NCBI RefSeq assembly: GCF_963676685.1 | Contig: NC_092353.1 | Span: 34,038,001 to 34,102,000, forward strand | Direction of reading: 5' to 3' | Length of the DNA: 64,000 nucleotides | DNA from: Mytilus edulis | Taxonomy: Eukaryota | Shown: positions 10,001 to 54,578 of the stretch, piece after piece | How positions within the stretch are numbered: position 1 is the first letter of the stretch | How the letters are laid out: each line of letters opens with the position of its first letter | The notes under the pieces: generated by a model | The model's input: the letters and a program-made list of their open reading frames with translations, nothing else | What the model was told of the DNA's origin: nothing | Database searches by the model: none | Translations under genes and position numbers: made by a program

Positions 10001-13000
10001 GCCGAATTATACATCATATATAAGTTTGGAGAAGTTTTAGTTTATTGTGTGAAGTGAAAAATATTTGAATCTACATTTTAAATTGATACAAAAAAAAAAA
10101 ATTCTGCTCTATAGATTTCCTTTCATAAATGAAGTCTGAAATATATCCATAATAATAAATTCACCGTATTAAATGCATTTAAGAGAACACCTACTTATAA
10201 ACTGTTACGTGTTGCATACTATGTAAAGAGACATGCATAATAAATCTAAAAAAAAAAAGGAATTCTTAAAGCTTATTTTGACAAATTTTAAACATATTTC
10301 AACAAGTTTAAATTACATGTTCTAGAATAGAGCTACAAACAAAACAAAAATGCTGAGACTGCTCTAAAGATTTTTTTTTATAAATGAAGTCTGAAATATA
10401 TCCATAATAAATTCACCGAATTAAATGCATATATGAGAACACCTCATAAACTGTTACGCGTCGCTTACTATGTTTAGAGACATGCATAATAAATCTAAAT
10501 TAAAAAAAAAGAATTTTTAAAGTTTATATTGACAAATTTTAAGCTAACTACATTTCAACAAGTTTAAATTACATGTTCTAAAATAGAGATCAGAATTGTT
10601 TGTATTGTAGTAAATTTAAGTCTTTGATATTTTATTCAAATACGCTATTGAACATCACCAAGAGCCAATAAATACAATTTTGTGTTTTATAAATTAGTGC
10701 CTTCAATAAATAAAAGTCGTCATAGAACAGTCTCATTTCCATACCGGTATTCGAAATGACTCGTTGCTTTTACAACAAAAATGTCATAAAAACATTACTA
10801 GATCTTCTAGATAAATATACAAATAGCAAATTTTAAACAATGTACCCTCCGAAACCTTGAAGTGGTTAGTCACATATAGTTAATGGTGTTTTTCTCACAA
10901 TGACTTTCTACCTCCATAAGCCTGGATATGTCGTGGCTGGTCACATATGATGAGGTTAATCTGACTATTTGAGATATATATCCCGGTATATAATTTATAC
11001 TGAGAATATTGTTGAGCATGTCATATTATATAATTTCTTTTTTTTTTAAGTGCCAAGTGTTTTAGGATTAACTTTAATTGCTCATGATTAAGATTTTGTT
11101 TTAATAATGAGATGTGATATGAATTCCAATGAGACAACTCTCAACTAAAGTTCAAACGATATGTATGCAACTATCCCCCAAGGATACTTGTATTTCGTGT
11201 ATTTGAACACTTAAGATTTTTTTTAAATCTCTCGATGTACTGGTATGTGTAGTTTGTGAACATCATCTGGCAGTGCAAGCATTTTAATTGTTCTTATAAA
11301 TTACTTCTTATCCTAATTTTTCCTTAACCTATGAACCTTTTAATGTGGGATATGTGTCCAGAGAAAATGAAGATATTTACCAAGGAAGTTTCAGAAGATG
11401 GTGCAGAAGCTACACAGGTAGTTATCATGAATTAAATCTTGTTTTCTATTTAGCTTACTGTGGATTCATTGTTATTCGTTGGATGCCAATTTTCATGGGT
11501 TTCATGGAAACAGGTGAACCACGAATTCAAATGTTCAAGTTACTACAAATTTTCTATAGGCTTTGTACACAGAAATCGGCAAACCACGAAATCAAATAGC
11601 CATAAAAAGGCAAGTTTTTCTCAATCCACGAAAAATAAAAGAATCCACAGTAACTTTAAATTTTAATTGAATAGGGATAAAAGTAAATTTTAATTGAATA
11701 GGGATAACATTAATTTTAATTGAATAGGGATAAAAGTCAATTTTGATTGAATAGGGATAAAAGTCAATTTTAATTGAATAGGGATAAAAGTCAATTTTAA
11801 TTGAATAGGGATAAAAGTCAATTTTAATTGAATAGGGATAAAAGTCAATTTTAATTGAATAGGGATAAAAGTCAATTTTAATTGAATAGGGATAAAAGTC
11901 AATTTTGATTGAATAGGGATAAAAGTCAATTTTGATTGAATAGGGATAAAAGCCAATTTTTGTTAGATGAATATTGCCTTGAAGGAATTCTTTATCCACT
12001 AGTTCTAGTTTTAGTTTTGACCATTCAGATTTATTTCCTGATCTCATGAATTAAAGTAAAGCAAACAAAAATTGATTGGTTCAAAAACAAGCATGCATTC
12101 AATGCAAACATGACTTATTTTTTTAGAAATCTGGGATAATTGATATCATACCAGGACTACAGATAGATGACTTCTTGTTTGATCCATGTGGATATTCTAT
12201 GAATGGAATTCTGCCAGGGGTAAGTACTGTTCCATTTGGACATAAGTGTATGATCAGATGACATGCTATATATAATAGTAATTTGTGGAACTTATTAAAG
12301 ATATCTGAAGTAACGTTGAAAGTCAAACAGAAGCAATTCTGAATGTCTTTTAAATTTCTGAGGTATTATATTTCAAATAGAAGAGAAAATTCAACTTTTT
12401 ATAAATGCACTGCCTACAGTATGGTTTGGCTCATTATTGAAAGCTGTACTGTAGTCTTTTTTTGTTTACATCCGGGGAGGAAAGTTGTCTTATTGGCAAT
12501 CATACCAAAATATTTTTATCTTATAAAAGAGTAGGTCGGTCCGGTAAGGGCCCATTTTGGCCCCAAATTTCAGGTTCGTCTGAAGAAAGATTTTGTACAC
12601 TTTTTAAACACTTAAGTGTCTACTACGGTTTACTCAATTAGTTTGTGTGAAAAATTTGAACTGATTTATTCAGTTAAGAAGCTCATATTCAAGCTTAAAT
12701 ATAAAAAATCTGATCAATTACCGGTATGTCATAATATGTCACTTTTCAGATAGTTCTTGTCAAAAATGAAAGTGGCCGCATCCATGTTCATCCTCAAATT
12801 TTATATATGTTATGTATTATTATCAAATACAACTTACATTTAATATTGAGACAACACGAATGCAGCCACTTCCATTTAAGACGAAAAGTGTCTAAAATAT
12901 AACTCAAATACTAAAATTGTGAAGATTTCATTACTTTTACATGACTTAATGATGCTAGTACCCAATATATGTGCATTATATTGTCAAAAACAGCCCATAT

Positions 13001-20896: not shown

Positions 20897-21294
20897 ATGT
20901 ATTTCAGGGGCTAGATAATTATTCTTACCATGTAAATTGAAGGCTTATGTTACCAAGTATCTTTTTGTCAAATGTTTGATGTCCTTGTCCATCAGACCAG
21001 GTTCACATGTCCTAGACTACATTTCAGGAATCAATGATCAAGGTAAAGTTTACGTTGTCAAGTCCATATCTGTCAACTATATTTGGTTTATTAATTGATT
21101 AGTAGACCCTGTTTGACTGGCAGGTTTTATCTGACCTTGACCTCATTTCCATGGTTCATTGTGCAACATGATTTTTTTGTGTTTTTGTCTCTCAAATACA
21201 AGCTAGTACTCTCGTTAAGTTATTGATAACTATTGGGTTGGTTTTTTCAAATATATCAGCAGACCTATATAAGTTATGGAACTGGCACGAATCT

Positions 21295-22785
21295 TGCAGT
21301 CAATGGATGGGCAGGTGTCAGGCAGTCAATGGATGAGCAGGTTTCTGGAAGTGAATGACTGGGCAGGTGTCTGGCAGTCAAAGGATGGGCAGGTGTATGG
21401 CAGTCAATGGATGAGCAAGTGTCTGGCAGTCAATGGATGAGCAGGTGACTGGCAGTCAATGAATGGCCAGTTGTCTGATAGTCAATGGATGGGCAGGTGT
21501 CTGGCAGTCAATGGATGAGAAGGTGTCTGGCAGTCAATGGATGGGCAGGTGTGAGGCAGTCAATTGGTGAGCAGGTGTCTATCAGTCAATGGATGGGCAG
21601 GTGTCAGGCAGTCAATGTATGGGCAGGTGTATGGCAGTCAATGGATGAGCAGGTGTCTGGCAGTCAATGGATGGGCAGGTGTCAGGCAGTCAATGTATGG
21701 GCAGGTGTATGGCAGTCAATGGATGAGCAGGTGTCTGGCAGTCAATGGATGGGCAGGTGTCTGGCAGTCAATGGATGGGCAGGTGTATGGCAGTCAATGG
21801 ATGGGCAGGTGTCTGGCAGTCATTGGATGGGCAGGTGTATAGCAGTCAATGGATGGCCAGGTGTCTGGTAGTCAATGGATGGGCAGGTGTCAGGCAGTCA
21901 ATGTATGGGCAGGTGTATGGCAGTCAATGGATGAGCAGGTGTCTGGCAGTCAATGGATGGGCAGGTGTCTGGCAGTCAATGGATGGGCAGGTGTATGGCA
22001 GTCAATGGATGGGCAGGTGTCTGGCAGTCATTGGATGGGCAGGTGTATAGCAGTCAATGGATGGCCAGGTGTCTGGTAGTCAATGGATGGGCAGGTGTCA
22101 GGCAGTCAATGGATTGGCAGGTGTCTGTCAGTCAATTGATGGGCAGATGTCTGGCAGTCAATGGATGGGCAAGTGTATGGCAGTCAATGGATGAGCAGGT
22201 GTCTGGCAGTCAATGGATGGGCAGGTGTATGGCAGTCAGTGGATTGGCATGTATATGGCAGTTAATGGATGAGCAGGGGTCTGGCAGTCAATCGATGGGC
22301 AGGTTTATGGCAGTCAATTGATGGGCAGATGTCTGACAGTCAATGGATTGGCATGTATATGGCAGTTAATGGATGAGCAGGTGTCTGGCAGTCAATGGAT
22401 GGGCAGGTTTATGGCAGTCAATTGATGGGGAGATGTCTGGAAGTCAATGGATGGCCAGGTGTCCATCAGTTACATGATGAACAGGTTGAATTAAGTCATT
22501 GAAGATGAGTCTAACAGTTAATTGATTGGTATGCAACAGGCAGTCAACAGATGAACAGGTGTCCAGCAGTTACAGGATGAACAGGTTTAATTAAGTCGTT
22601 GAAGATGTGTCTAGCAGTTAATTGATTGGTATGCAACAGGCAGTCAATGGAAGGGCAGGTGTCCAGTAGTTCAATGATGGACAGGTTTAATGCAGTCATT
22701 GAAGATGTGTCTGGTAGTTAATTAATTGGCAAGTGACAGACGGTCAGTGTCTGCATGTCTGGGCAGGTGTCTGGCAGTCAATGAC
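21295..22785. repeat. 26-bp G-rich minisatellite with higher-order periodicity
   Basis: Consensus GGCAGTCAATGGATGGGCAGGTGTCT, over 50 copies; 208-bp (8-mer) duplication in the core and ~104-bp (4-mer) diverged blocks at 22450-22740. Confidence 0.95.
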
Positions 22786-32581: not shown

Positions 32582-33387
32582 TCATCAGATATGAATATAC
32601 AATCTAGTGCCAAATGTTAAAATGAAAAAGGGTAATAATGTTGGCCATCTAGTCATCTTTTCAATGTTTTTACCATTCTTATATGAAGGAAAAACCAGAA
32701 CTGCATCAGATATTACTGATTTGTAAGGGGGTGTTCCCTGAAGTTTGCTATGGGTTTTGAGAGGGGTTGGGAACACATGAAAATAATGACATAACCATTT
32801 GAAAGATAGGTATACCGTTATTGAGGTTCTGCTTCTTGACTCTCTTTTAAATCAGATATGAATATACAATCTAGTGCCAAATGTTAAAATGAAAAAGGGT
32901 AATAATGTTGGCCATCTAGTCATCTTTTCAATGTTTTTACCATTCTTATATGAAGGAAAAACCAAAACTGCATCAGATATTACTGATTTGTAAGGGGGTG
33001 TTCCCTGAAGTTTGCTATGGGTTTTGAGAGGGGTTGGGAACACATGAAAATAATGACATAACCATTTGAAAGATAGGTATACCGTTATTGAGGTTCTGCT
33101 TCTTGACTCTCTTTTAAATCAGATATGAATATACAATCTAGTGCCAAATGTTAAAATGAAAAAGGGTAATAATGTTGGCCATCTAGTCATCTTTTCAATG
33201 TTTTTACCATTCTTATATGAAAGAAAAACCAGAACTGCATCAGATATTACTGATTTGTAAGGGGTGTTCCCTGAAGTTTGCTATGGGTTTTGAGAGGGGT
33301 TGGGAACACATGAAAATAATGACATAACCATTTGAAAGATAGGTGTACCGTTATCTAGGTTCTGCTTCTTGACTCTCTTTTAAATCA
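32582..33387. repeat. Three near-identical tandem copies of a 267-bp unit
   Basis: ATCAGATATGAATATACAATCTAGTGCC recurs at 267-bp spacing; identical pseudo-ORFs at 32585-32776 and 32852-33043. Confidence 0.95.
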
Positions 33388-40210: not shown

Positions 40211-43200
40211 TTAATCATAACTTTTTCTGATTGACTTGGAAACACGCCTTGTTGACAAATTTGCAATCGCAAACAACAAGCCTTGAATACTGCAAGTAGT
40301 TATAAACAAGTATTCCATAAACTCAGTCTGAACAACGGCTCCCAGTATTCCAGTAACCCAAAATGCACCTGTCACGATGCTTATTCGAACAAAAACTGGA
40401 ATGAATTTAAAAGAACTTGACTTCCGTATGTGCCGTGTCTCATATGACTGCTTAGTTATTACAACAGCAATACAAATTAGACTGACAACATTGATGAGAA
40501 CCGACAAACCTATCGGAGCAGATACAAAGATTAAGTTAGCGGGATACCCTGTAGGGAAGCAAATACTCCCGCTGTAATCAAGAGTAACACCAGGAATAAT
40601 CAAATCAATTATCATTGCAGGTCCTACAAATATAACTGGCAACAGAAGACCAAGAACTGTAAGATATGCTTTCTTGTTTTTTATACCAAGTGCATGTGCA
40701 TTATTAGCTGACATTTGTCTTATATTATGACACATATAAACCAGGGCAACAGACTTGAATGAAAACACAGACAGCCAAAGGTAGTGGAGAACAACACCTA
40801 CGGTATAGCAGACTATATAATGATCATTGGCGCCAACACCCACCATGAATAAAATATCTGAAAGTAACAAAGCAATGGATAAATTTTCTACGTTTGAACC
40901 AGGAATTGTTTTATGCATTCCGAACTTTCTGTGTACAGTCAGATATACAGTTAAGGCAAGTATAGAAACACCCATACCAGTATATGTTATAATATTCTTC
41001 CTAAAATCCTGTGATGTTAATGTTTGATCCAATTCATTCCAACATGTTACCTTTGTAACTATCATAGCTGCTGATTTTTCCTCTATTTCAGATTCAATTG
41101 TATAACTGTCACATAGTTGTTCACTGAAGTTGGTTTTGATGCTGACATTTATCTCTTCATGCGACAGTCCTTTTTTATCCAAGGTCGTAGAATCAGTATC
41201 ATTATCAATTAACAACCGCTCCACTTTAAACGTGGAAAACTCGAAATCATGTCTGTTTGATGATTTAATTCGCATGAACCATAAACAGTTGTGTAGTTTA
41301 GTTTCAAATTTTAACATTTCAATTGAATTGAGTTTCTTGATGATTTTTAGTTGCATTTTTGTTGGAGTAACATAATGTGTTTTATTACTTTTATATGTTT
41401 GATATCTATATACTGACATACTCAATGTTTCAATATCTCGCTGGAACGACCATGCCATCACCAGCAGAATTTGTTTCATCATTTTGTCCTCCATTGCAAA
41501 CGGATGCAGCCAGTGAATTATTTTCTCTGTTCGATAACCAGAAAACAATTCAGTCTCTATGCAGAATTTGTTAACCTAAGAGAAAAGAACGACATTTAAG
41601 TACATACAATGTTTAATTGCTATGGTGTTTCACCACTGCCTCATGAAAAGATTATAGGAGAATTTGGCACTTAATAACAATTTAAACCCATTACATCTAT
41701 CGACCCGATGTCCAATGAATGTTGTTGGCTGACTTATCTATGGTTGTGTGATGACTAACAATGATATACTTACCTACATTTGAGACAGCACATTAACCCA
41801 ATGTAGTTGTTTTCATATTATTCACGAAAACCTGAGGACCTATATGACAAAAAAGGACTACGAAAATAGTGAAATTCAACTTTGCCTTAGAGGGGTAATA
41901 ACTTAATCGACAGGTTGTAGATAATCATTTGGGCCTCAATAGCGCCCGTTCGAGAGCATACATAGTCTTGCACAAACTTATTCCCCTGTATTGTTATAAA
42001 TTACAATGCACATGTGTATGGCAAAACACAAAATGTAAAAAAAGATCCTTTTAGCTATTACGGAAACCAACATCAACACTTAATTATAATTTTGCTTGGA
42101 ATTACCAGAAAACAAAAATGAGTGGGAAATACCAAGAGAAATTTGGTGCTCATAAATCGAAGATAAACTGACAAAGTCATAAAAAATATATCTAAAGAAA
42201 AACGTCAAACAGTTACACAAAAGAAAACACCAATAGAAATCTAGATTCTGAACAACTGAAAACCCTATTCACGTTTGTGTTGATATCAGGTGCTTCGGAA
42301 TTGCTTCAGTCGGTGCTTATACATTTATACGGAGATAGCCGCCAGGTGCAAATACACCTATATGGCCCTCAGTTACGCAATGTATTTGTCTGTTGTATGT
42401 AAGTAGCAGTGAAACCTAATGAAAATTGACACTTTTATGCGTGCAGAAGATGAAAAGAAAAAAGATACATCTTTCCGTTTTGAATTTTCCTCGGCGTTCG
42501 GTATTTCTGTGATTTTACTTTTATTGTAATATTTGTCTTTCCAGGTTGATTTATGAGATATGAATAAAGGTAAACTTCTGTAACTATAAAATGTTTCGTC
42601 TAATAAAAAAGTATTAAGACTGCTTATACTTTTATACGGAGATAGCCACCAGGTGCAAATACTCCTGCATGGCCCTCAATAACGCAATGTATTTGTCTGT
42701 TGTATGTAAGTAGCAGTGTTATATTCAAACGACAGGAAACGATATATATTCAAATACATCTGTTTTATCAGATGAACAGAAGGTTCTAAAGTATTGATTT
42801 TAAATATTTCATCACTTTGAAGTCATTTTACTGAAATAGTGTCTGAATTCAATTTCAAAACTGTCACTTAATCTTAACGACGTCAAAGACATACTCATGT
42901 GTTGCAATATACGATATATGTGTCGTCCGGTGTTCTATAGATAAATATGATCAATGCAAGTTATCAGTATAATATAAGCCTAAGGTAACTCTAATATGTA
43001 TACATTACCTTGTTATTACAGTACAGATTCCTTTCTGTAAACGAGAACACCACCGATAGCGGAAACCAGTTATACCACTGACCAAACGAATCACTTGATC
43101 CTAAACATGAACATCCATAATCAGGAGGTACACAAAACACATTCATATATAATTCCCGTTTACCACTCTTTGCACGAACAACTGGATTCATGTAGTAATT

Positions 43201-44232
43201 AAAGCAGTTTTCTGTATTTTCTACCTTTGGTTTATCAAATAACACGCATTGCCGAACTGCAACTGTTTTCGGAGGAATAAGTTCCATCTGAACATCTGTA
43301 AACTTGTTAAATTGATAATGATTTAAAACTTCAACTAGTTTATGCAACATTGTCGTGTTAGTTTCCATTGTAAGATACTTTGATTCAACATTTGAAAAAT
43401 TTACTGAAAAATGTTGAAAAGCAGTCACTCCGTTGCATTCAGCACAAAATTGATTTTGAAAAACAACATTATCATCGCTTACAACCCATGGTCCAACTGT
43501 CAATAAATCATTTGAACGACACTTCAAATCAATGTCTGTGCTCGTGAAAAGTTCTGGACAATTTTTGATAATGAATATACCATCGATTCTATCTTTTCTG
43601 GATGTATGTGGTGAACATTCGAAATTTAAATTGAAATTTACTTTGGAATGATTTATATTATTAGCGTCAATACAACAATCATTATAAAATGTACAAAAAT
43701 CATCACATCGACAAAACGGAATAGACAAATTAGAAACATGTTTGCACGTACCATACTGTGAACACGGGTCCAAGCTAAGCAGATCCATTTTCCCCTTTGT
43801 AACCGATAACGGAGTCATCGTGGACATATGTCGTAAGGGATCGTTTGTGATATGGTCAATAGAAGAAATGAACATCTTTCCAAAGGAATATTGTTTACCA
43901 GATTGAACAGACAAGTCAGCATTGCTCTGAAACTGTCTAGGTTCTGTTGTTGAAACGTTACATCGTAAGGGAACATCTAGCCCTAGGGTTGTGACTGGTA
44001 GAATACTGCTGCAGTTGTCGGAAATGTTTGCTGAGTTATTGAATGTTAAACGGGTTGACGAATCGTGACCATATTTATTATCAGTTGTCGGTTCATTGAT
44101 ATCTGGTGTGAGTTCGGTTGAATTTTGTAGATATTTCGAAGTTCTATCATTAATTTCCATACAAAAAGTAAACGAAAACAGCAAAGTTAATAAAGCATTT
44201 GTACATAAAGATTCCATTGTTTTTACATCCAT
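40211..44232 (-). CDS. Family-B/adhesion (methuselah/latrophilin-like) 7TM receptor with somatomedin-B-like Cys-rich ectodomain, 862 aa; complement(join(40211-41575,43009-44232))
   Basis: Exon 1: signal-peptide-like N-terminus, S/T/N-rich stalk, SMB-like CRCDDFCTFYNDCCID and FQNQFCAECNG. Donor AAG|GTAATG at 43009 and acceptor TTTTCTCTTAG at 41575 are in frame. Exon 2 has seven hydrophobic helices with secretin-family motifs (NLSIAL, C...VVLHYLWL, ICF, PIG..VLIN, GAFW, SIQG). Confidence 0.88.
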
Positions 44233-46007
44233 TAAGTCTGGGTTTTATTGTGTATTGCTTGTATATATAGTATATATATATATGGACAAATAAAAAAGTC
44301 ATGATCGTGTCATTTCCACTTTGTTGATTGTTTCATCTGTCATTATATGGAAGCTTTTAAGGAATTTTCATTTTTCTTTTTAAGTCTCATGATTTCAATT
44401 AAAACTAATATTTTAATATAATTAGCAGGTGCGTTTCCATTATATTTTTCAATTTTAAAGATTATGTTTATAAAAGGGTTTTTTCTTTTGATACTAGTAA
44501 TGGGATAATTGACTGATATACTGTGAAGATTGTCTAACCGAATTTAATATCAATATGAAAATGTTAATTATAAAGGAAAAAAAAAACTTTTTGAAACTTG
44601 TCATAGAAAATAAAAATGTGTATTTGTCTTTTATTGACTCTGTAGAGTCATATAATCGTGGAAATTCAAATTAGGAGCATTTTAATTTTGAATTACACAT
44701 CTCAAAAAGTATCATTGTAACAGGATTTAGACAGCTAAAGGATTTCTAAAGGTTTGCAATTTCTTTTTTAGGATGCACAGTTTCTTTTTCTGCTATTATA
44801 TATTGATATGAAATAGTAATGGGACTATATAATACCACATGTAAGGGAATCTAACAGTTGATTGTCCGTAAAGAACGAATACCTTGAACAAAATTAAATA
44901 TGATACCCAATTATGTAACATATTTATTCGGATATCTTTAATGTTTTGAATGAAAAATACGATTAATTAATAATGATTTTTTAATGAGAACTTGCTGCAA
45001 AAAGTGGTCAAATAGTGCGAACGTCTATCAGAATGAATGTAGGGTAACCGTTCGCTCCGGACCTACAATATAATAGTATCAGTTAAACTATTAAAAGGTA
45101 TATTTAAAGTTGAATTTCAATTCAATGATTCAATATATTTGCATATTTAAACGTTTACATTAAAGGGAAGTAATAATTGTATTCAACAAAAATATATACT
45201 ATATCAAAAGTACAAATGTTGAAATAAAAAGCATGCCGATATGCATGAGAACAGAATTCATACAGATACAAATACTTCGAGAGTTCTTAGTATCAAAAAT
45301 ATGTTATGGCGGGCATATATAATGAAATTCTCATTAAGTTTTTACAATAGAAACATTGTGTTTTTAATGTTAATAATACTGAAAAGTACTCCCTTGTAAC
45401 AATATTTTAGTTAATAACAGATAGTTTACAGGTAAACATAAATATGCTACACTTTATGAGAACCTGCTAATCCCTATTGTTGTTTTAGTCTAATTTTTCA
45501 AACGTTGTTGTTTTTTTTTGTGTTATTGCACTTCTGTGTTATGTTATTTCGTTGTTTTCCTCTTGTAGTTGAAGTGTTTCCCTCGGTTTTAGTTTGTAAC
45601 TCGGATTGGTTTTCTCTCAATCGATTGATGACTTTTGATCAGCGGTACAATACTGTTGCCTTTATTTAACCCAACCCTTGTACTGACGATCCATATCTTA
45701 CAGGCTTTAAGTTCATTAAAGAGATTGTATACATTTACAGCCAGTCTTATTTGTTTAACAGAGATGTTGTTCAGTGGCCTATCTCGTACAATCATATTAT
45801 TGGCATAATCAAATGTACAAATTAGATAAAACGGTAACCGTTACATTCTAACATCTTATCTATAAATGACTGTCTTATTGATTTGGCATTTAAAACTATT
45901 TTGTATCAAACGCCACTCGTGTGTAGACAAAACGTGGGTCTGGCGTACGAAGTTATGTTTTACTATAGTATTCAATATCAAAACCGAGATATTATGTGTA
46001 AAATCCG

Positions 46008-47622: not shown

Positions 47623-50600
47623 AAATGACTGAATAAATAGTCAACGATTAGTCAACGATCAATCTTACGGGGCGATGGATCATAAAAACGATTCAGTACA
47701 CTACAGAATATAATATATAACAAGTCTAAAAGGGTACAACATCACCAAAAACACAATAAAACGAACAATATGTTAGATATTTCGGAAAACAGATATCCTT
47801 CCTCGGCAATTGCACGATGACAAATGAATCATGTCAATTAAAATTAACACTCTATCAAAATCTTGAAATTTATACAATTTAAGCGAACGGTTGAACAATT
47901 TTTAAAATTTCCAAACACGGCACAGACTACAAAGATATGCCAAAATAAAAATAGATATTAACGATGTGAACTGGCACAACTCTAAATTCCCAAAGGTGGT
48001 GACAGTTGAGATGTTAAACAACTGCGTGGAAATACAGTCCCAATAAACAGTCCTGACAGATCTAAGCTGGTATAATATTTAAAATATGACAACGGTAGAG
48101 CAATTGCAACAGAGACTGCGTTTTTAAACATCCCAAAAATATAGTAATTAGATGATTAGAAAAATGAGTAATAAATTTTTACTAAGGTTAAGTAATAGAA
48201 CGTGGCTGCGTATTTACACATCCCTGCCAACTATAATTAAAACTAGTATAATTAAAAAATTCCTGAAAAGTATAAGAGTCCAGTACGGAAGCCGGAGTTA
48301 CTGGACACAAGTGATGGCAGGAAATTAGTGATGGTAGGGAAAATGAGTGACTCTTCTATGTTTTTTTCGTTAATGCCCTCTGGGGAAACTGTCCTGAGCT
48401 TTCTTATCCAAAAACTTTCCCGAACAAGTCTGTCGGCCTTCGACCAGTCCTCGTTGTGATCTATGATGGTGATGGTAAGTTGTTTAAGATCAGCTTGGGC
48501 GTGCCCATGTGATCGTAAATGACGACTTACGGGGAGGTCGGGCTTGCAGGTGTATTCACTACGATGACCATTCATGCGTTTGTTGAATGGCTGTTCTGTC
48601 TCGCCAACATACTGCATGCCACATCGACACTGAAGAATGTATACAACATTCTGGGTTTTGCAAGTTACATTACAAAATATTGTGTACACAGACCCAATGG
48701 AGTGGCAAGTAAATGTTTGAGTATTCAGTATTTGTTGGCAAGTCAGACATCGTTTGTTACCACATGACTTGCACCATTCTGTAATTGAACAGCTTTTATT
48801 AGAGGAGACGGCAGCTTTCACAAATAAGTCTTTTAGACTTGCTGGTCTCCGAAAAGCTAAGACAGGAGGATCGGGAAAGATTTTGGATAATTTTGGGTGA
48901 TTGGCAATACTTTGCCAATTGGCACGGATCAAACGTGAAAGGTAAGTAAAGGCGGGGTTGTATGTTAAAACAAATGGAACTTCTTTGCTGCGCCTCTTCT
49001 TTTTGTACTGTAACAGGTCATTGCGGCTGTTATTGTTAGCACGCGCAAACTCCTTATCTATGTCCAATTTCTTAAAACCTCGTTTGATTAAAAATCCGCG
49101 AAGTTCCTATAACCGCTGAGTGACAGCCTCCTTAGAGGAGCAAATCCGCTTTACTCTGAGAGCTTGACTGTACGGGATACTTTTTTTACAGTGTTTGGGG
49201 TGACAACTTTGGGGAGAAAGGTACTGATGTTTATCTGTAGGTTTACAGTAGAGGTGTGTTGATATGACACCGTCTTTTATAGATGTAGTTGTGTCTAAGA
49301 AAGATATCTTAAGAGTCGGATATTTCATATGTAAATTTAATTGACTGGTGGGCGTTGTTTGCATGTCTGATAAAAGCATCCAATTTTTGTTGGGATTCAA
49401 TCCATTTCATGTCAACGTCATCGATGAAACGGAACCAAGACAGAGGTTTGGATAAAGATGTTGAAATAATTTGTTTCTCTAATTTGCCCATGAAAATATT
49501 GACGTAAGACGGTGCCATTTTCGTCCCCATCGCTGTCCCGTTTATTTGAAGGTAATTCTCACCATTAAAGGTAAAATTGTTGCATTTTAGGACCAGAGTA
49601 GGCAGCTGGACTAAACATTCGGTAGGTGGTTCTAAAGTGTTGCGCGAGTCCCATATTTCCCTACACGATTGTATTCCGTCATCATGAGGTATGTTGGTAA
49701 ATGCAATGAGGTGACATCTAAAGTGACAAGGAGAGTTTCCGGAGGAAGAGGGTTCATGGATTCCATTTTGCGAAGATAATCTGTAGTGTCTTGAATGTGA
49801 GAAGGAAGATTTTCTACATGAGATCTTAAATGAAAGTCTACAAATTCCGAGATTTTCTCAGTCGGGTGGCCGTTGGCGGATACAATGGGTCTACCGAGGT
49901 TGTTAACCTTGTGTATTTTAGGAAGAAGATACAATCGACCAGGCTTGGCGTTCTCTGGTTTTTAATATCCAATTGTATCCTCATCTATGTGACCGTCATT
50001 GTGCATGGTTTGTAACGCAGTAATAATTTGGGAACTAAACTCGGAAGTAGGTTCATAGTAAAGTTTCTTATAAAATCTCTCATCAGAGAGCTGATGTTCT
50101 GCGTCCGCGATGTAGTTGGCTTTGTCCATTATCACAACGGCACTTCCCTTGTCTGCTGGTTTTATAACAATATCATCTCGGTTTCTCAGCGATTGTATGG
50201 CATTTTTTCTCGTCAGAAGAGGTGTTATAAAACGACGAGTACTTATTGCTGGCTAGATGAACAACATCCGATTTCATTTTATCAATAACATCTTACAGTG
50301 TAGCAGATTTGCTGGGCTTTGGAACCCATGAACTCTTCTTTTTAAAATGCGGAATTATGATTTCGTCCTCCGAGTTGGACGTGGCTGTGTCTTCCTCATT
50401 ATCCTCCTCTTTATCCTTGTTACCAAAGTATTCTTTAATTCTGAGGGTTCTGGCAAAGTTATTGAGGTCATCCTCCAGTTTCATATTATCTATGTTACTT
50501 GGATTAGGGCAAAAGTTCAAACCCTTAGATAAGACTTTAGTTTCATCCTCAGTAAAAGAGACTGTTGACAAATTAACAACTGGGTTGTTGGGATTGGCCG

Positions 50601-50636
50601 TAATATGTATTTTTTTCGAAATCTACGGTTGCGAGG
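47623..50636 (-). mobile_element. Penelope-like retroelement, Neptune-type (RT, Cys linker, C-terminal GIY-YIG), frameshifted
   Basis: Broken ORF pieces: VLSKGLNFCP (50293-50571), [23 protein letters not shown] (49632-49934), [16 protein letters not shown] (49309-49530), YCKPTD..YL...SCHP (49107-49400), CKSCGNKRCLTC linker and NVVYILQC..CGMQYVGET...RMNGHRS...RESFWI..L.T..PEGIN (48252-49067). The 3' non-coding terminus runs into (TA)n at ~47603-47622. Confidence 0.92.
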
Positions 50637-51302
50637 CTTTTCCCGATCCTCCTGTCTTAGCTTTTCGGAGACCAGCAAGTCTAAAAGACTTATTTGTGAA
50701 AGCTGCCGTCTCCTCTAATAAAAGCTGTTCAACTACAGAATGGTGCAAGTCATGTGGTAACAAACGATGTCTGACTTGCCAACAAATACTGAATACTCAA
50801 ACATTTACTTGCCACTCCACTGGGTCTGTGTACACACTATTTTGTAATGTAACTTGCAAAACCCAGAATGTTGTATACATTCTTCAGTGTCGATGTGGCA
50901 TGCAGTATGTTGGCGAGACAGAACAGCCATTCAACAAACGCATGAATGGTCATCGTAGTGACTACACCCGCAAGCCCGACCTCCCCGTAAGTCGTCATTT
51001 AAGATCATATGGGCACGCCCAAGCTGATCTTAAAAAACTTACCATCACCATCATAGATCACAACGAGGACTGGTCGAAGGCCGACAGACTTGTTCGGGAA
51101 AGTTTTTGGATAAGAAAGCTCAGGACAGTTTCGCCAGAGGGCATTAACGAAAAAACATAGAAGAGTCACTCATTTTCCCTACCATCACTAATTTCCTGCC
51201 ATCACTTGTGTCCAGTAACTCCGGCTTCCGTACTGGACTATTACACTTTTCAGGAATTTTTTAATGATACTAGTTTTAATTACAGTTTGCAGGGATGTGT
51301 AA

Positions 51303-54067
51303 TAACCTCATTGGTTGATATCTTTGGCGGAAGTACATGTGATACATCCTCATTCTTTCAATATCCAAGCTGTGGGAAGGTCGTGCTCCACGTGTTGTCG
51401 GCAAAGTAACTATATTCTTTAACTTTTACTTACATTTGCCTTGGTGGCTTTAAGACCTTGGTGGTCATTTATATATGCCTTGGTGGCAAAAGACCTAGGT
51501 GGTCATTTATATATGCCTTGGTGGCAATAGACCTAGGTGGTCATTTTTATATGCCTGGGTGGCAATAGACCTAGGTGGTCATTTTTATGATTTTTTACAT
51601 TTGCCTTGATGGCAACAATGAATTAAAATACTAGCCTTGGGGGCGTCAAGACCTTGGTGGTCATTTATATTTGCCTTGGCGGCTTCTTGATAGAACTAGA
51701 TGGTAATGTTTGACCTTGGTGGCAAAAATGTTTTGGGATTTAGACTTTAATAGGTAGTTATTATCAACCAAGGTGGTCAGATATTTGTTATGCCGTGCGC
51801 CGGTTAAACGCAGGGCAAAGTGCTATCGCTATATAAAATATATGCGGAAGTGGGGGCTCTGGCCATTTTGGAAAATTGTAGTTGAAAGGAGAATAATAAA
51901 TTGTTTGTAGGGTAAATAGTTTCAATTGTTACTTTTGACTGTGTTGTGGACTTTTCATTTATTTTTACATCGTACATACTGATAGAAATGCTATTTAAAG
52001 ACTTTGTTAGAAAAGAATAGAATTATTGAGAAAGTGGAATAATTTAGTGTGACATGTCACTTGATATTCATGTTTTTTATCGGAGTGATGTGTATTGAAT
52101 TATAAGGTGTCTTCGTCGAGGTCCGTGTTCAGCGGTCTGTTTGATTGTACATAGAATTGAATAGAATGTTTTTGTTTTCAGATGGTGTTACCTACAGCTT
52201 TGACAGGGTGACGAATGAAGGAGAAGTAATATGACATTGCACGATGATTCATGTCAATGAATTCGAACAACCTTTTTTAAAAGGAAAGGATTTTTTCTAA
52301 TCAGAATATGGTGAGAACAAATTACAATTGAAGTAATGTTTTGATTTCTGAAAATAGGAAAATAATGAATGGGAAAAATATTGATACTACACTAAATTAT
52401 GTATGTCTGTGTTGAGAAAGGCAGAAGATGCCAATATGGCACGGTACTAAAAAAAAAAAAAAAATCTGTGATGGAAGCAGCTTTATGTTCAAATGAACCT
52501 ATTTAAAAGTAATGCTAATAATTTTTCCGTAATTTCATGATGTTTTCTATTGATTGTGTATTTAATTTCATTGATGTGTTGAAATATGTCACAAAAATCT
52601 TTTTGTCATGGGAGATTAAATAATGGTTGCAATATTTTTGTTTTGTTTTGTTTTATCTAAATTAATAAATAAATATAATGTTGAATGATTTTGTATACTA
52701 GTACAAATGTATACTTAAATTTTATGTATGGTTAAATTTTTTAATTTAAATTTCTTTGTCTACAGTTCGAGGGACACTGATTCCCTAGTGGTTTTCCACG
52801 TGGATTGTAGGCAAAGGGATTTTTCCTTTTCAAAGTGTGACTAATGCTGTCTTTAGTACAAATAAACAATTTGTTATTGGTTAATATATTTTCAGCAGAC
52901 ATTTGAAGAATCGAGTGGAAATACAATTGTCAATGTTCCTGATTATGAAGTAAAGAGTGTGTTTGATTCAACAACAGTAAAGAAAGAGACAAGCCAGCAT
53001 AGTTTACACTTGGAGGTTAAGTCCCTTTGCTTACAAGCTTTCCACATGCTGAAGATGTTATTAGAATAATGACAATGTTCATTTTGATATGAGTTCATTG
53101 CCTTAACTCAACTTTTAAAAGTCTGTATGTGGTCAAATTCATGAGAATTTATTGAATTATGAACGATTTATAAAGAACTGTGTACATGCATCTTTAAATG
53201 TTTAGAAGTGTTTTAACGTAATTTTAAAAGGAATTATATTTAATAAAAGTGTTGAATTTGTTTTGAGTATTGGGAATACTATTCCTTAAGGGAAAGCCTT
53301 GCTAGTGGTGTATTTTGAGATTGGCCTGCAAATATGCTGTATGGACTATAGAGTTTTCTATGCCCATAACTTAACATGAACTGGATGCAAGATTATATCA
53401 ATCACTGAGGATATGTGTATAACCTCATTGGTTGATATCTTTGGCGGAAGTACATGTGATACATCCTCATTCTTTCAATATCCAAGTGGTGGTTGGTTTA
53501 AGGGCTATGTTTGGTCAGGCAATACATATTGCCTGTTTGGGTTGATGAGGTTCTTGATAAGTTCCCCCCTCTCCCACCCATAAGTACCAAAATGTGGATA
53601 TGTTTTTATATTTATATTTCAATATTGGTATTACATGTATGCATTTTGGGTTGATGAGCACGAGACAACATTACAAAAACATGAGCATTACCATGGGATC
53701 ATGTTGACAAAACAAACCTTCGCTTTATCGATTTTCAAGGGAAAGGTCAATTAGGGCAAGTGTATTGGCATGTTTGTATTTGCTTTTTCATTACAATGGT
53801 AAAAATAAGATTATATATCTCTGATGACAAAAATTTTGATTATAATGCTTCATTTTATGAGCTCCAGAGTAGTTTTATAACTGAAAAACAACTGTGCACT
53901 ATATCTAGTGAGCTCTTCTGCATTGCATTGTGCATGGTAGTCCACATTTTGGTTTCTGAAACGTTAAGATATTATCTTGTATTCGGTTCTTTCCTCTAGA
54001 GTTTTCTATGCCCATAACTTAACATGAACTGGATGCAAGATTATATCAATCACTGAGGATATGTGTA
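51303..54067 (+). mobile_element. Non-autonomous split-direct-repeat element, putative tyrosine-recombinase (PAT/Ngaro/TOC1-like) type
   Basis: A1 51303-51369 = A2 53420-53486 and B1 53349-53419 = B2 53997-54067, in the order A1..B1A2..B2. No long ORF. The empty site is visible at 48200-48230 (minus strand). Confidence 0.8.
51436..51725. repeat. ~38-bp tandem repeat of alternating GCCTTGGTGGC / GACCT(A/T)GGTGGTC motifs
   Basis: Four clear units TGCCTTGGTGGCAATAGACCTAGGTGGTCATTTATATA (51437-51588), followed by degenerate units. Confidence 0.9.
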
Positions 54068-54578
54068 ATACGCAGCCACGTTCTATTACTTAACCTTAGT
54101 AAAAATTCATTACTCATTTTTCTAATCATCTAATTACTATATTTTTGGGATGTTTAAAAACGCAGTCTCTGTTGCAATTGCTCTACCGTTGTCATATTTT
54201 AAATATTATACCAGCTTATTTCTGTCAGGACTGTTTATTGGGACTGTATTTCCACGCAGTTGTTTAACATCTCAACTGTCACCACCTTTGGGAATTTAGA
54301 GTTATGCCAGTTCACATCGTTAATATCTATTTTTATTTTGGCATATCTTTGTAGTCTTTGCGCCGTGTTTGGAAATTTTAAAAATTGTTCCAGCGTTCGT
54401 TCAAATTGTGTAAATTTCAAGATTTTGATAGAGTCTTAATTTGAATTGACATGATTCATTTGTCATCGTGCAATTACCGAGGAAGGATATCTGTTATCCG
54501 AAATATCTAACATATTGTTCGTTTTATTGTGCTTTTGGTGATGTTTTACCCTTTTAGACTTGTTATATTATATATATA

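Follow-up and report, generated by a model that had tools for sequence, protein, structure and literature searches.

INTRODUCTION

Sites such as loxP and FRT, used by the tyrosine recombinases (YRs) Cre and Flp, consist of inverted arms around an 8-bp spacer, with the cut one base inside the spacer. A 44-bp motif of this shape, at positions 53395 to 53438 of a 64-kb stretch of the Mytilus edulis genome (the window, meaning the whole stretch of DNA analyzed here), raises the question of what uses it and how strands are exchanged there. The first-pass annotation had taken it for a loxP/FRT-like site of an uncharacterized animal YR, with spacer homology directing exchange and a third arm as in FRT. 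Comparison of copies leads us to a related but distinct reading, in which the motif is the internal junction of a retrotransposon without genes and probably the place where an ALOG-domain YR from related full-length elements inserts it, with a predicted exchange of the minus strands only.

RESULTS

The motif has exactly the anatomy that had been claimed, with a left arm (53395 to 53412) and an inverted right arm (53421 to 53438) of 18 bp each, matching at 15 of 18 positions around an 8-nt spacer (53413 to 53420; all plus strand). It is the only site in the window with at least 15 of 18 arm matches around an 8-bp spacer, and shuffling of the arm bases at fixed geometry gives a P value of 5e-5. 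Since 20 block-shuffled windows contain 0.1 such sites each, the 44-mer alone is moderately unusual, and the weight of the case comes from the comparison of copies. The spacer had been described as asymmetric; it is weakly so, the two outermost bases on each side being complementary. The right arm contains what we take to be a reverse CCAAT-box-like word. A plant ALOG motif, YACTGTW (PMC10927535), was considered in the left arm and rejected, the match being 5 of 7 and found in the nearest lineages only.

Self-comparison shows that the 44-mer is where the B and A ends meet (B|A) inside an element of 2,765 bp with split direct repeats (51303 to 54067, plus strand), a nonautonomous retrotransposon arranged A1-body-B1|A2-spacer-B2 with no long open reading frame. 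Repeat A1 (51303 to 51375), with which the element begins at spacer base 8, is identical to A2 (53420 to 53492) at 71 of 73 positions, and B1 (53346 to 53419), which terminates in spacer bases 1 to 7, is identical to B2 (53994 to 54067), the right end of the element, at 73 of 74. An empty paralogous target survives in the other terminal repeat of the element into which it inserted (48214 to 48221, minus strand). This empty site equals left flank plus right flank exactly, with nothing gained or lost, and contigs from two DNA-type runs jump exactly 2,765 bases at 51303 to 54067. A 34-mer spanning the junction has 67 exact copies in the genome (control, 0). Contigs break at the 73- to 74-bp repeats, and no back-joint of the kind that a circular DNA intermediate would give is listed among them; no circle was seen. 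The family has the features of the DIRS order, namely, split direct repeats, multiple copies with precise ends and no target-site duplication, and an RNA intermediate; the window element itself lacks coding capacity, and its ends are related to those of autonomous YR elements.

The host of the window element is a reverse transcriptase (RT)-bearing element with a weak Pfam RT match (47708 to 54575), the inverted terminal repeats of which lie at 47708 to 48878 and at 50639 to 54575 minus the insertion. It has GIY-YIG-like frames in both orientations and is, by that motif, presumably Penelope-like. Two loci (L295:3562-4212 and L300:3541-3998, oriented coordinates) contain solo A-spacer-B units that resemble the SIRE of VIPER and have normal flanking host DNA; homologous recombination of A1 with A2 and YR activity on the internal junction fit these units equally well.

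Two introns with GT..AG borders lie within the element on the plus strand, intron 1 (51406 to 52181, 776 nt) and intron 2 (52311 to 52895, 585 nt). The joint of intron 1 is present in one RNA read and one contig and that of intron 2 in one RNA contig; the intron 1 donor site is kept in 87 fetched loci (not deduplicated). In the genomic copy L063, the ends are normal but intron 1 is missing precisely. In 58 copies, 7 private variants are common to A1 and A2 and 6 to B1 and B2, compared to 0.13 and 0.09 in shuffles. The intronless copy and the variants shared by paired repeats show that the element is copied through RNA and that its ends are rebuilt from the internal junction; gene conversion could add to the sharing. 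Intron 1 also holds 38-bp tandem repeats (51430 to 51725), which differ in copy number between copies and match, over short stretches, the 5' part of auto-2, one of the full-length families described below.

The ends of the copies locate the crossover. After duplicate removal, the set comprised 87 left and 98 right ends, with L189, L190, and L296 set aside as degenerate internal junctions (an earlier symmetry profile was made without L102, L075, and one end each of L083, L088, and L114). Left ends begin at spacer base 8 and right ends finish at spacer base 7, so that the crossover (7|8) falls between 53419 and 53420 in the window, and other insertions likewise cross over inside the spacer rather than outside it. 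The donor 7-mer, with at most 1 mismatch, is found on 94 of 98 right ends, and the donor 6-bp core stands ahead of the left end in 0 of 87 cases, the closest having 2 mismatches (8 cases). After insertion, the host spacer is thus at the left end and the element spacer at the right. The four exceptional right ends are L075, shifted in register by a 4-nt insertion, and L088, L104, and L293, which are interrupted; no right end clearly carrying a host core was found among the 98. We considered L088 as a reverse-type junction, its end being replaced right after the arm, and left it as an interrupted copy, as its left end was not found.

Spacer homology does not appear to guide these insertions. Host and donor spacers agree at 2.09 of 7 positions on average in 74 paired sites, versus 2.01 ± 0.14 by chance, contrary to the first-pass annotation, and out-of-register homology is at chance level at offsets -2 to +1; at +2, where the comparison overlaps preferred W bases, 2.43 positions match. 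These sites have no excess of target-site duplications, overlap lengths being equal to shuffled ones. The window target (51295 to 51302) looks like a target-site duplication, since it contains the donor 7-mer shifted by one base; slipped pairing may account for it, but we treat this case, 1 of 74, as chance.

What the targets copy is the inner part of the arms. In the right half, C is at +4 in 59 of 94 targets (P = 4e-35), W at +2 in 83 and at +3 in 84, and A or C at +5 in 74, with T at +1 in 49. The left half, counted on 68 left flanks not selected by a left-end query, has a purine at -10 in 55 (P = 1e-9), G at -11 in 26, and a weak excess of A at -1 (36; P = 0.02). The resulting consensus is a loose palindrome, G-R-W-W, 8 free bases, and W-W-C-M, stronger on the right side, and the profile is self-complementary about the midpoint of the spacer in the element itself (r = 0.66, against 0.27 for the second-best axis). 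Target positions -11 to -8 mimic the inner 4 bases of the left arm, and +2 to +5 mimic inner bases of the right arm; the host targets are degenerate, copying these inner bases only, and are not second full sites.

Arm symmetry and spacer length, which the first-pass annotation had suggested aligning across copies, are kept well beyond the family. We compared 13 junction types, including four further ALOG-YR lineages of the genome, the YRs of which are 30 to 45% identical, and six metagenome junctions (23 loci searched, 17 giving no usable junction). All 13 have 11 to 15 of 18 paired arm positions around an 8-nt spacer, with differing sequence (shuffle P, 5e-5 to 9e-4); the innermost arm pairs are nearly fixed, and outer pairs take up to four Watson-Crick types. 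The cut is set independently by both host flanks in 7 of 13 types and is placed partly or wholly by symmetry in auto-5, L314, L316, L318, L319, and L321. In auto-5, pairing is 1 of 18 at the first register and 11 of 18 after a 2-nt shift of the cut, which its left ends allow because all its targets share AC|T. Pairing is conserved while sequence changes (both sides of a pair have changed in 4 of 31 pairs among six close relatives), in sequences that are related rather than independent, and symmetric protein binding gives the same pattern.

Some of these lineages have features of their own. In auto-5 (L336 to L340, L270 to L272, L287, and L353), AC|T is shared with all targets seen, AC in 4 of 4 left and T in 5 of 5 right. 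The window-element family has no such three-base homology, which is DIRS-like. The pol frame of auto-5 has a weak GDSL-like tail. In L292, a copy of auto-4, the host spacer is close to the donor spacer and the crossover is shifted into the spacer. Judging from these junctions, homology matters in some lineages. The metagenome contig L319 carries an ALOG-YR element closing on itself through repeat A with a 46-base overlap, either an assembly loop or a true circle.

The junction is predicted to form a long bulged hairpin centered on the spacer (53374 to 53458), on both strands and more stably on the plus strand. Across junction types, 100-nt junctions fold as bulged hairpins with DNA z scores of -2.6 to -7.5 (plus) and -0.9 to -6.5 (minus), the plus strand folding better in 12 of 13. 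G-T pairs outnumber A-C pairs 15:5 (P = 0.04), an excess that loses significance when composition is controlled for (P = 0.095). The distal part pairs significantly in 7 of 13 lineages, the window-element family not being among them (P = 0.12), and distal helices are bulged and out of register in 7 of 13. A folded recombination site would have the exchanged strand as the better-folding one and both boxes in the stem; this was not the pattern found, and the spacer lies in the loop. The better folding of the plus strand and the G-T excess would favor an RNA or plus-strand role for the hairpin over that of a minus-strand substrate.

The third arm proposed by analogy with FRT is present as a motif at 53463 to 53481, yet it matches the right arm at 11 of 18 positions. 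The best match to the arm elsewhere is 8 to 11 of 18 in 12 other lineages, a range that includes the third motif, and the motif does not covary with arm sequence, as an FRT-type third arm would. Its core (53467 to 53472, plus strand; copy in A1 at 51350 to 51355) is a TCAKTY word, which we take to be the Initiator consensus, and this word occurs at +40 to +63 of repeat A in 9 of 12 lineages versus 0.66 expected. The motif is more likely a promoter Initiator than an arm, and transcription likely begins at 53467 to 53472, a start predicted from the word; no position could be mapped from 30 reads. With such a start, the RNA would retain approximately 24 nt of A with which to jump to A2, which fits the shared variants at A positions 1 to 50.

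The cognate YR that the first-pass annotation had called for has predicted candidates in this genome. No full-length element with the exact junction of the window-element family was found in the genome. Two families of approximately 7 to 7.5 kb, auto-1 (found by a pattern of inner arms plus free spacer) and auto-2 (found by a variant spacer), have the same inner arms and different spacers. They carry a gag-like frame, RT/RNase H (RH) with a methyltransferase (MT)-like tail (E, 1e-12 to 1e-16 with a profile made for this analysis), and, after RT/RH, a YR of 410 to 417 amino acids with an N-terminal ALOG domain (Pfam E, 1e-17 to 3e-19). With their MT domain and with split direct repeats beyond the YR, they fall in the PAT-like structural class rather than with Ngaro, which has no MT domain. 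A quick tree of 18 RTs, all from the genome under study, groups the ALOG elements by themselves, outside both the PAT-type and the Ngaro-type elements found there; it was built with no named references and carries a long-branch warning. The YR catalytic motif is R-K-HxxR-H-Y, and helper residues at these positions align with those of other YRs of the genome. The predicted YR fold (pLDDT 59.9, low confidence) has Cre as first match (E, 1.4e-7) and matches a plant ALOG structure weakly; the closest named homologues of the helper proteins are from Mytilus, oysters, and clams.

Eight auto-1 copies are 99.4 to 99.8% alike, and all three frames are open in 3 of 8 auto-1 and 3 of 4 auto-2 copies. The ends of both families obey the same 7|8 rule, the window-element A/B repeats are 75% alike to those of auto-1 and 81 to 83% to those of auto-2, with short internal matches in addition, and an older subfamily of the window element has the auto-2 spacer. 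We infer that the helper is auto-1 or auto-2, two young full-length families sharing the inner arms. Raw reads of one run, inspected for helper expression, are mostly first-mate-plus with many loose ends and likely stem from embedded or antisense copies.

Other candidates were rejected. Among the first 20 Pfam phage-integrase loci, 10 are PAT-type with another junction and the rest have inverted ends or none, and five further loci (L238 to L242) were likewise excluded; two long members of the family (L077 and L124), considered as carriers of the YR gene, contain nested insertions instead. The PAT-type elements of the genome (L169 to L173, L177, L179, L181, L186, and L188) have the junction ATAA, 6-bp core, TTAT. 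In all 10, the donor core lies on the left, and the host flanks mimic the short arms. Each of the 7 that were folded forms a hairpin within B that is attC-like, its stem containing the cut, and the mirror pattern of these elements would imply use of the plus strand there.

DISCUSSION

That the 44-mer is a tyrosine recombinase site, as the first-pass annotation held, is very likely from the sequence comparisons, with the crossover inside the spacer, the arms kept, targets that mimic the inner arms, and candidate YRs in the genome. The enzyme is uncharacterized in the biochemical sense; its family, the ALOG-domain DIRS-order retroposons, has been described (PMC3537659).

YR chemistry proceeds through a 3'-phosphotyrosine and, in Cre geometry, leaves a 6-bp 5' stagger, by which the 7|8 cut would be the bottom-strand cut. 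We predict that the exchange is probably a one-strand, homology-free event, in which the minus strands of donor and host would be swapped, the second exchange would not occur, and replication or repair would fix the insertion, the enzyme being supplied by the ALOG-domain YR of auto-1 or auto-2. A minus-strand-only swap entails that the host spacer ends up at the left and the donor spacer at the right, that nothing is duplicated, and that the target is more constrained in its right half, all of which are seen; a full double exchange would be expected to give both outcomes unless repair were wholly biased. The donor for a minus-strand exchange would on balance be a duplex or nicked circle, with a folded minus-strand cDNA as a serious possibility.

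Exchange of both strands without homology, from a double-stranded circle in a Tn916-like manner, has the same cut geometry and target mimicry, and a duplex circle belongs to the standing DIRS model (PMC7192593 and PMC3266345, as far as the available passages go). The L292 crossover inside the spacer implies, further, that intermediates can shift. However, the 6-bp heteroduplexes at the ends would segregate both ways if unrepaired, and with no donor core at any left end and no right end found clearly carrying a host core, complete strand-biased repair toward the minus strand is demanded at both junctions, a requirement that renders this route improbable. The long inverted repeat could instead be mainly an RNA hairpin, serving template switching, priming, or packaging in reverse transcription, while the recombinase uses the inner 3 to 4 bp on each side. 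The better-folding plus strand, the G-T excess, the bulged distal helices, and an outer arm sequence that is free while pairing is kept, with targets mimicking only inner bases, all fit such a hairpin, but it does not by itself explain one-sided spacer inheritance, the G-T excess loses significance after composition control, and the hairpin axis is the recombinase axis in all lineages. We think it quite improbable as the main function; as an added role, an RNA hairpin is compatible with minus-strand exchange.

The loxP/FRT-type account, in which two full sites recombine reciprocally, spacer identity directs exchange, and the third motif is an accessory arm, draws on the arm-spacer-arm anatomy, on a 7|8 cut that matches Cre geometry as generally known, on Cre being the first fold match (a low-confidence model), and on the out-of-register 7-mer of the window target. 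Inverted arms and a crossover in a 6- to 8-bp spacer are indeed shared with Cre/loxP and Flp/FRT. The window element differs in having no spacer homology (host spacers are at chance level at offsets -2 to +1, and the window case stands alone among 74), a degenerate target in place of a full site, nonreciprocal spacer inheritance, from which the lack of two-strand exchange is read indirectly, and no true third arm, the motif behaving as an Initiator. End statistics and spacer-match counts refute this account for the window-element family, and we accord it hardly any probability.

Returning to minus-strand exchange, a folded donor is allowed because DIRS-1 cDNA is single-stranded and antisense, its circle junction not having been amplified (PMC7192593), and because integrons provide a precedent (PMC4792948), on the available passages of both. 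We hold a folded single-strand donor to be possible overall but less likely than not. One recombinase would open the loop and two more would hold the 4+4-bp degenerate host palindrome; a single homology-free strand exchange would then yield a three-way junction resolved by replication. The fuller picture, of ALOG-domain YR retrotransposons alive in mussels and directly integrating single-stranded minus cDNA via the B|A hairpin with the spacer in the loop, is similarly tentative. If true, PAT-type families, with their attC-like stem, would mirror the ALOG-YR elements, folded single-strand integration would be the rule for split-repeat retrotransposons, and a Cre-like animal enzyme would insert kilobases without scars at very common sites. 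A linear donor with hairpin telomeres (protelomerase-like) was rejected, as spacers are not palindromic in most lineages, and so was a plus-strand hairpin as the YR substrate, which would place the donor core on the left, the opposite of what is observed.

Several known systems share parts of this pattern. The ALOG-domain DIRS1-type retroposons of molluscs and other marine animals (Iyer and Aravind 2012, PMC3537659) have the ALOG-domain YR, RT/RNase H, and MT-like tail, with 159-bp terminal direct repeats. All metazoan copies were inferred there to be dead, unlike the open-framed auto-1 and auto-2 copies and the gene-less family riding on them here, and the available passages give no split-repeat junction, cut site, or target rule. 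PAT-like, Ngaro, and VIPER elements, with the nonautonomous TOC1 and SIRE (PMC4157794, PMC6681497, PMC8547959, and PMC9940879), are alike, in the passages at hand, in the A1-body-B1|A2-B2 layout, the absence of target-site duplication, gene-less derivatives, and solo A-spacer-B units. DIRS1-like elements are described as sharing a 3-bp junction word (in passages of PMC3266345), whereas the window-element family has no fixed word in common with its targets.

The proposed strand behavior resembles that of bacterial strand-biased integrative elements (SEs), which, by the passages available from PMC10214605, use a tyrosine recombinase and imperfect inverted repeats around a 6-bp core and leave the donor core at the right end and the host core at the left end by one-strand exchange. 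These differ in being DNA elements with several proteins, selected targets, and nicked duplex circles, whereas the window element takes an RNA route and its targets are degenerate hundreds-fold. Integron attC x attI recombination and CTXphi integration (passages of PMC4792948) also exchange one strand, are resolved by replication, and keep pairing while sequence varies. There, both binding boxes of attC lie in the stem and a 3-bp microhomology is needed, unlike the window element, with its spacer in the hairpin loop and no need for homology; the PAT-type families of the genome are more attC-like.

According to a 2020 study (PMC7192593, seen in part), YR specificity had not been investigated. 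For split-repeat retrotransposons, the passages available from PMC13465315, PMC6681497, PMC7192593, PMC8547959, PMC3266345, PMC3537659, PMC10214605, PMC4792948, PMC4157794, bioRxiv 2026.09.21.753150, PMC10927535, PMC9210276, PMC12477816, and PMC9940879 contain no arm-spacer-arm site, target logo, or one-strand exchange. For the study of YR retrotransposon integration, the window-element family offers a donor site that is defined, a position for the cut, a rule for targets, and enzymes that are candidates, and its copy statistics argue against a model of homology at a shared word for the ALOG-YR clade. The clade from which the ALOG transcription factors of plants derive appears young and open-framed in an animal, with a natural DNA site on offer. 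If the model holds, a homology-independent, duplication-free animal integrase would be of interest as a tool.

Other features of the window

Large exons of a secretin-family 7TM receptor gene lie at 40211 to 41575 and 42991 to 44244 (both minus strand; Pfam 7tm_2 E, 1.6e-12 for the first). Tandem arrays occur at 21292 to 22463 (26 bp), 11659 to 11960 (27 bp), and 32584 to 33387 (267 bp).
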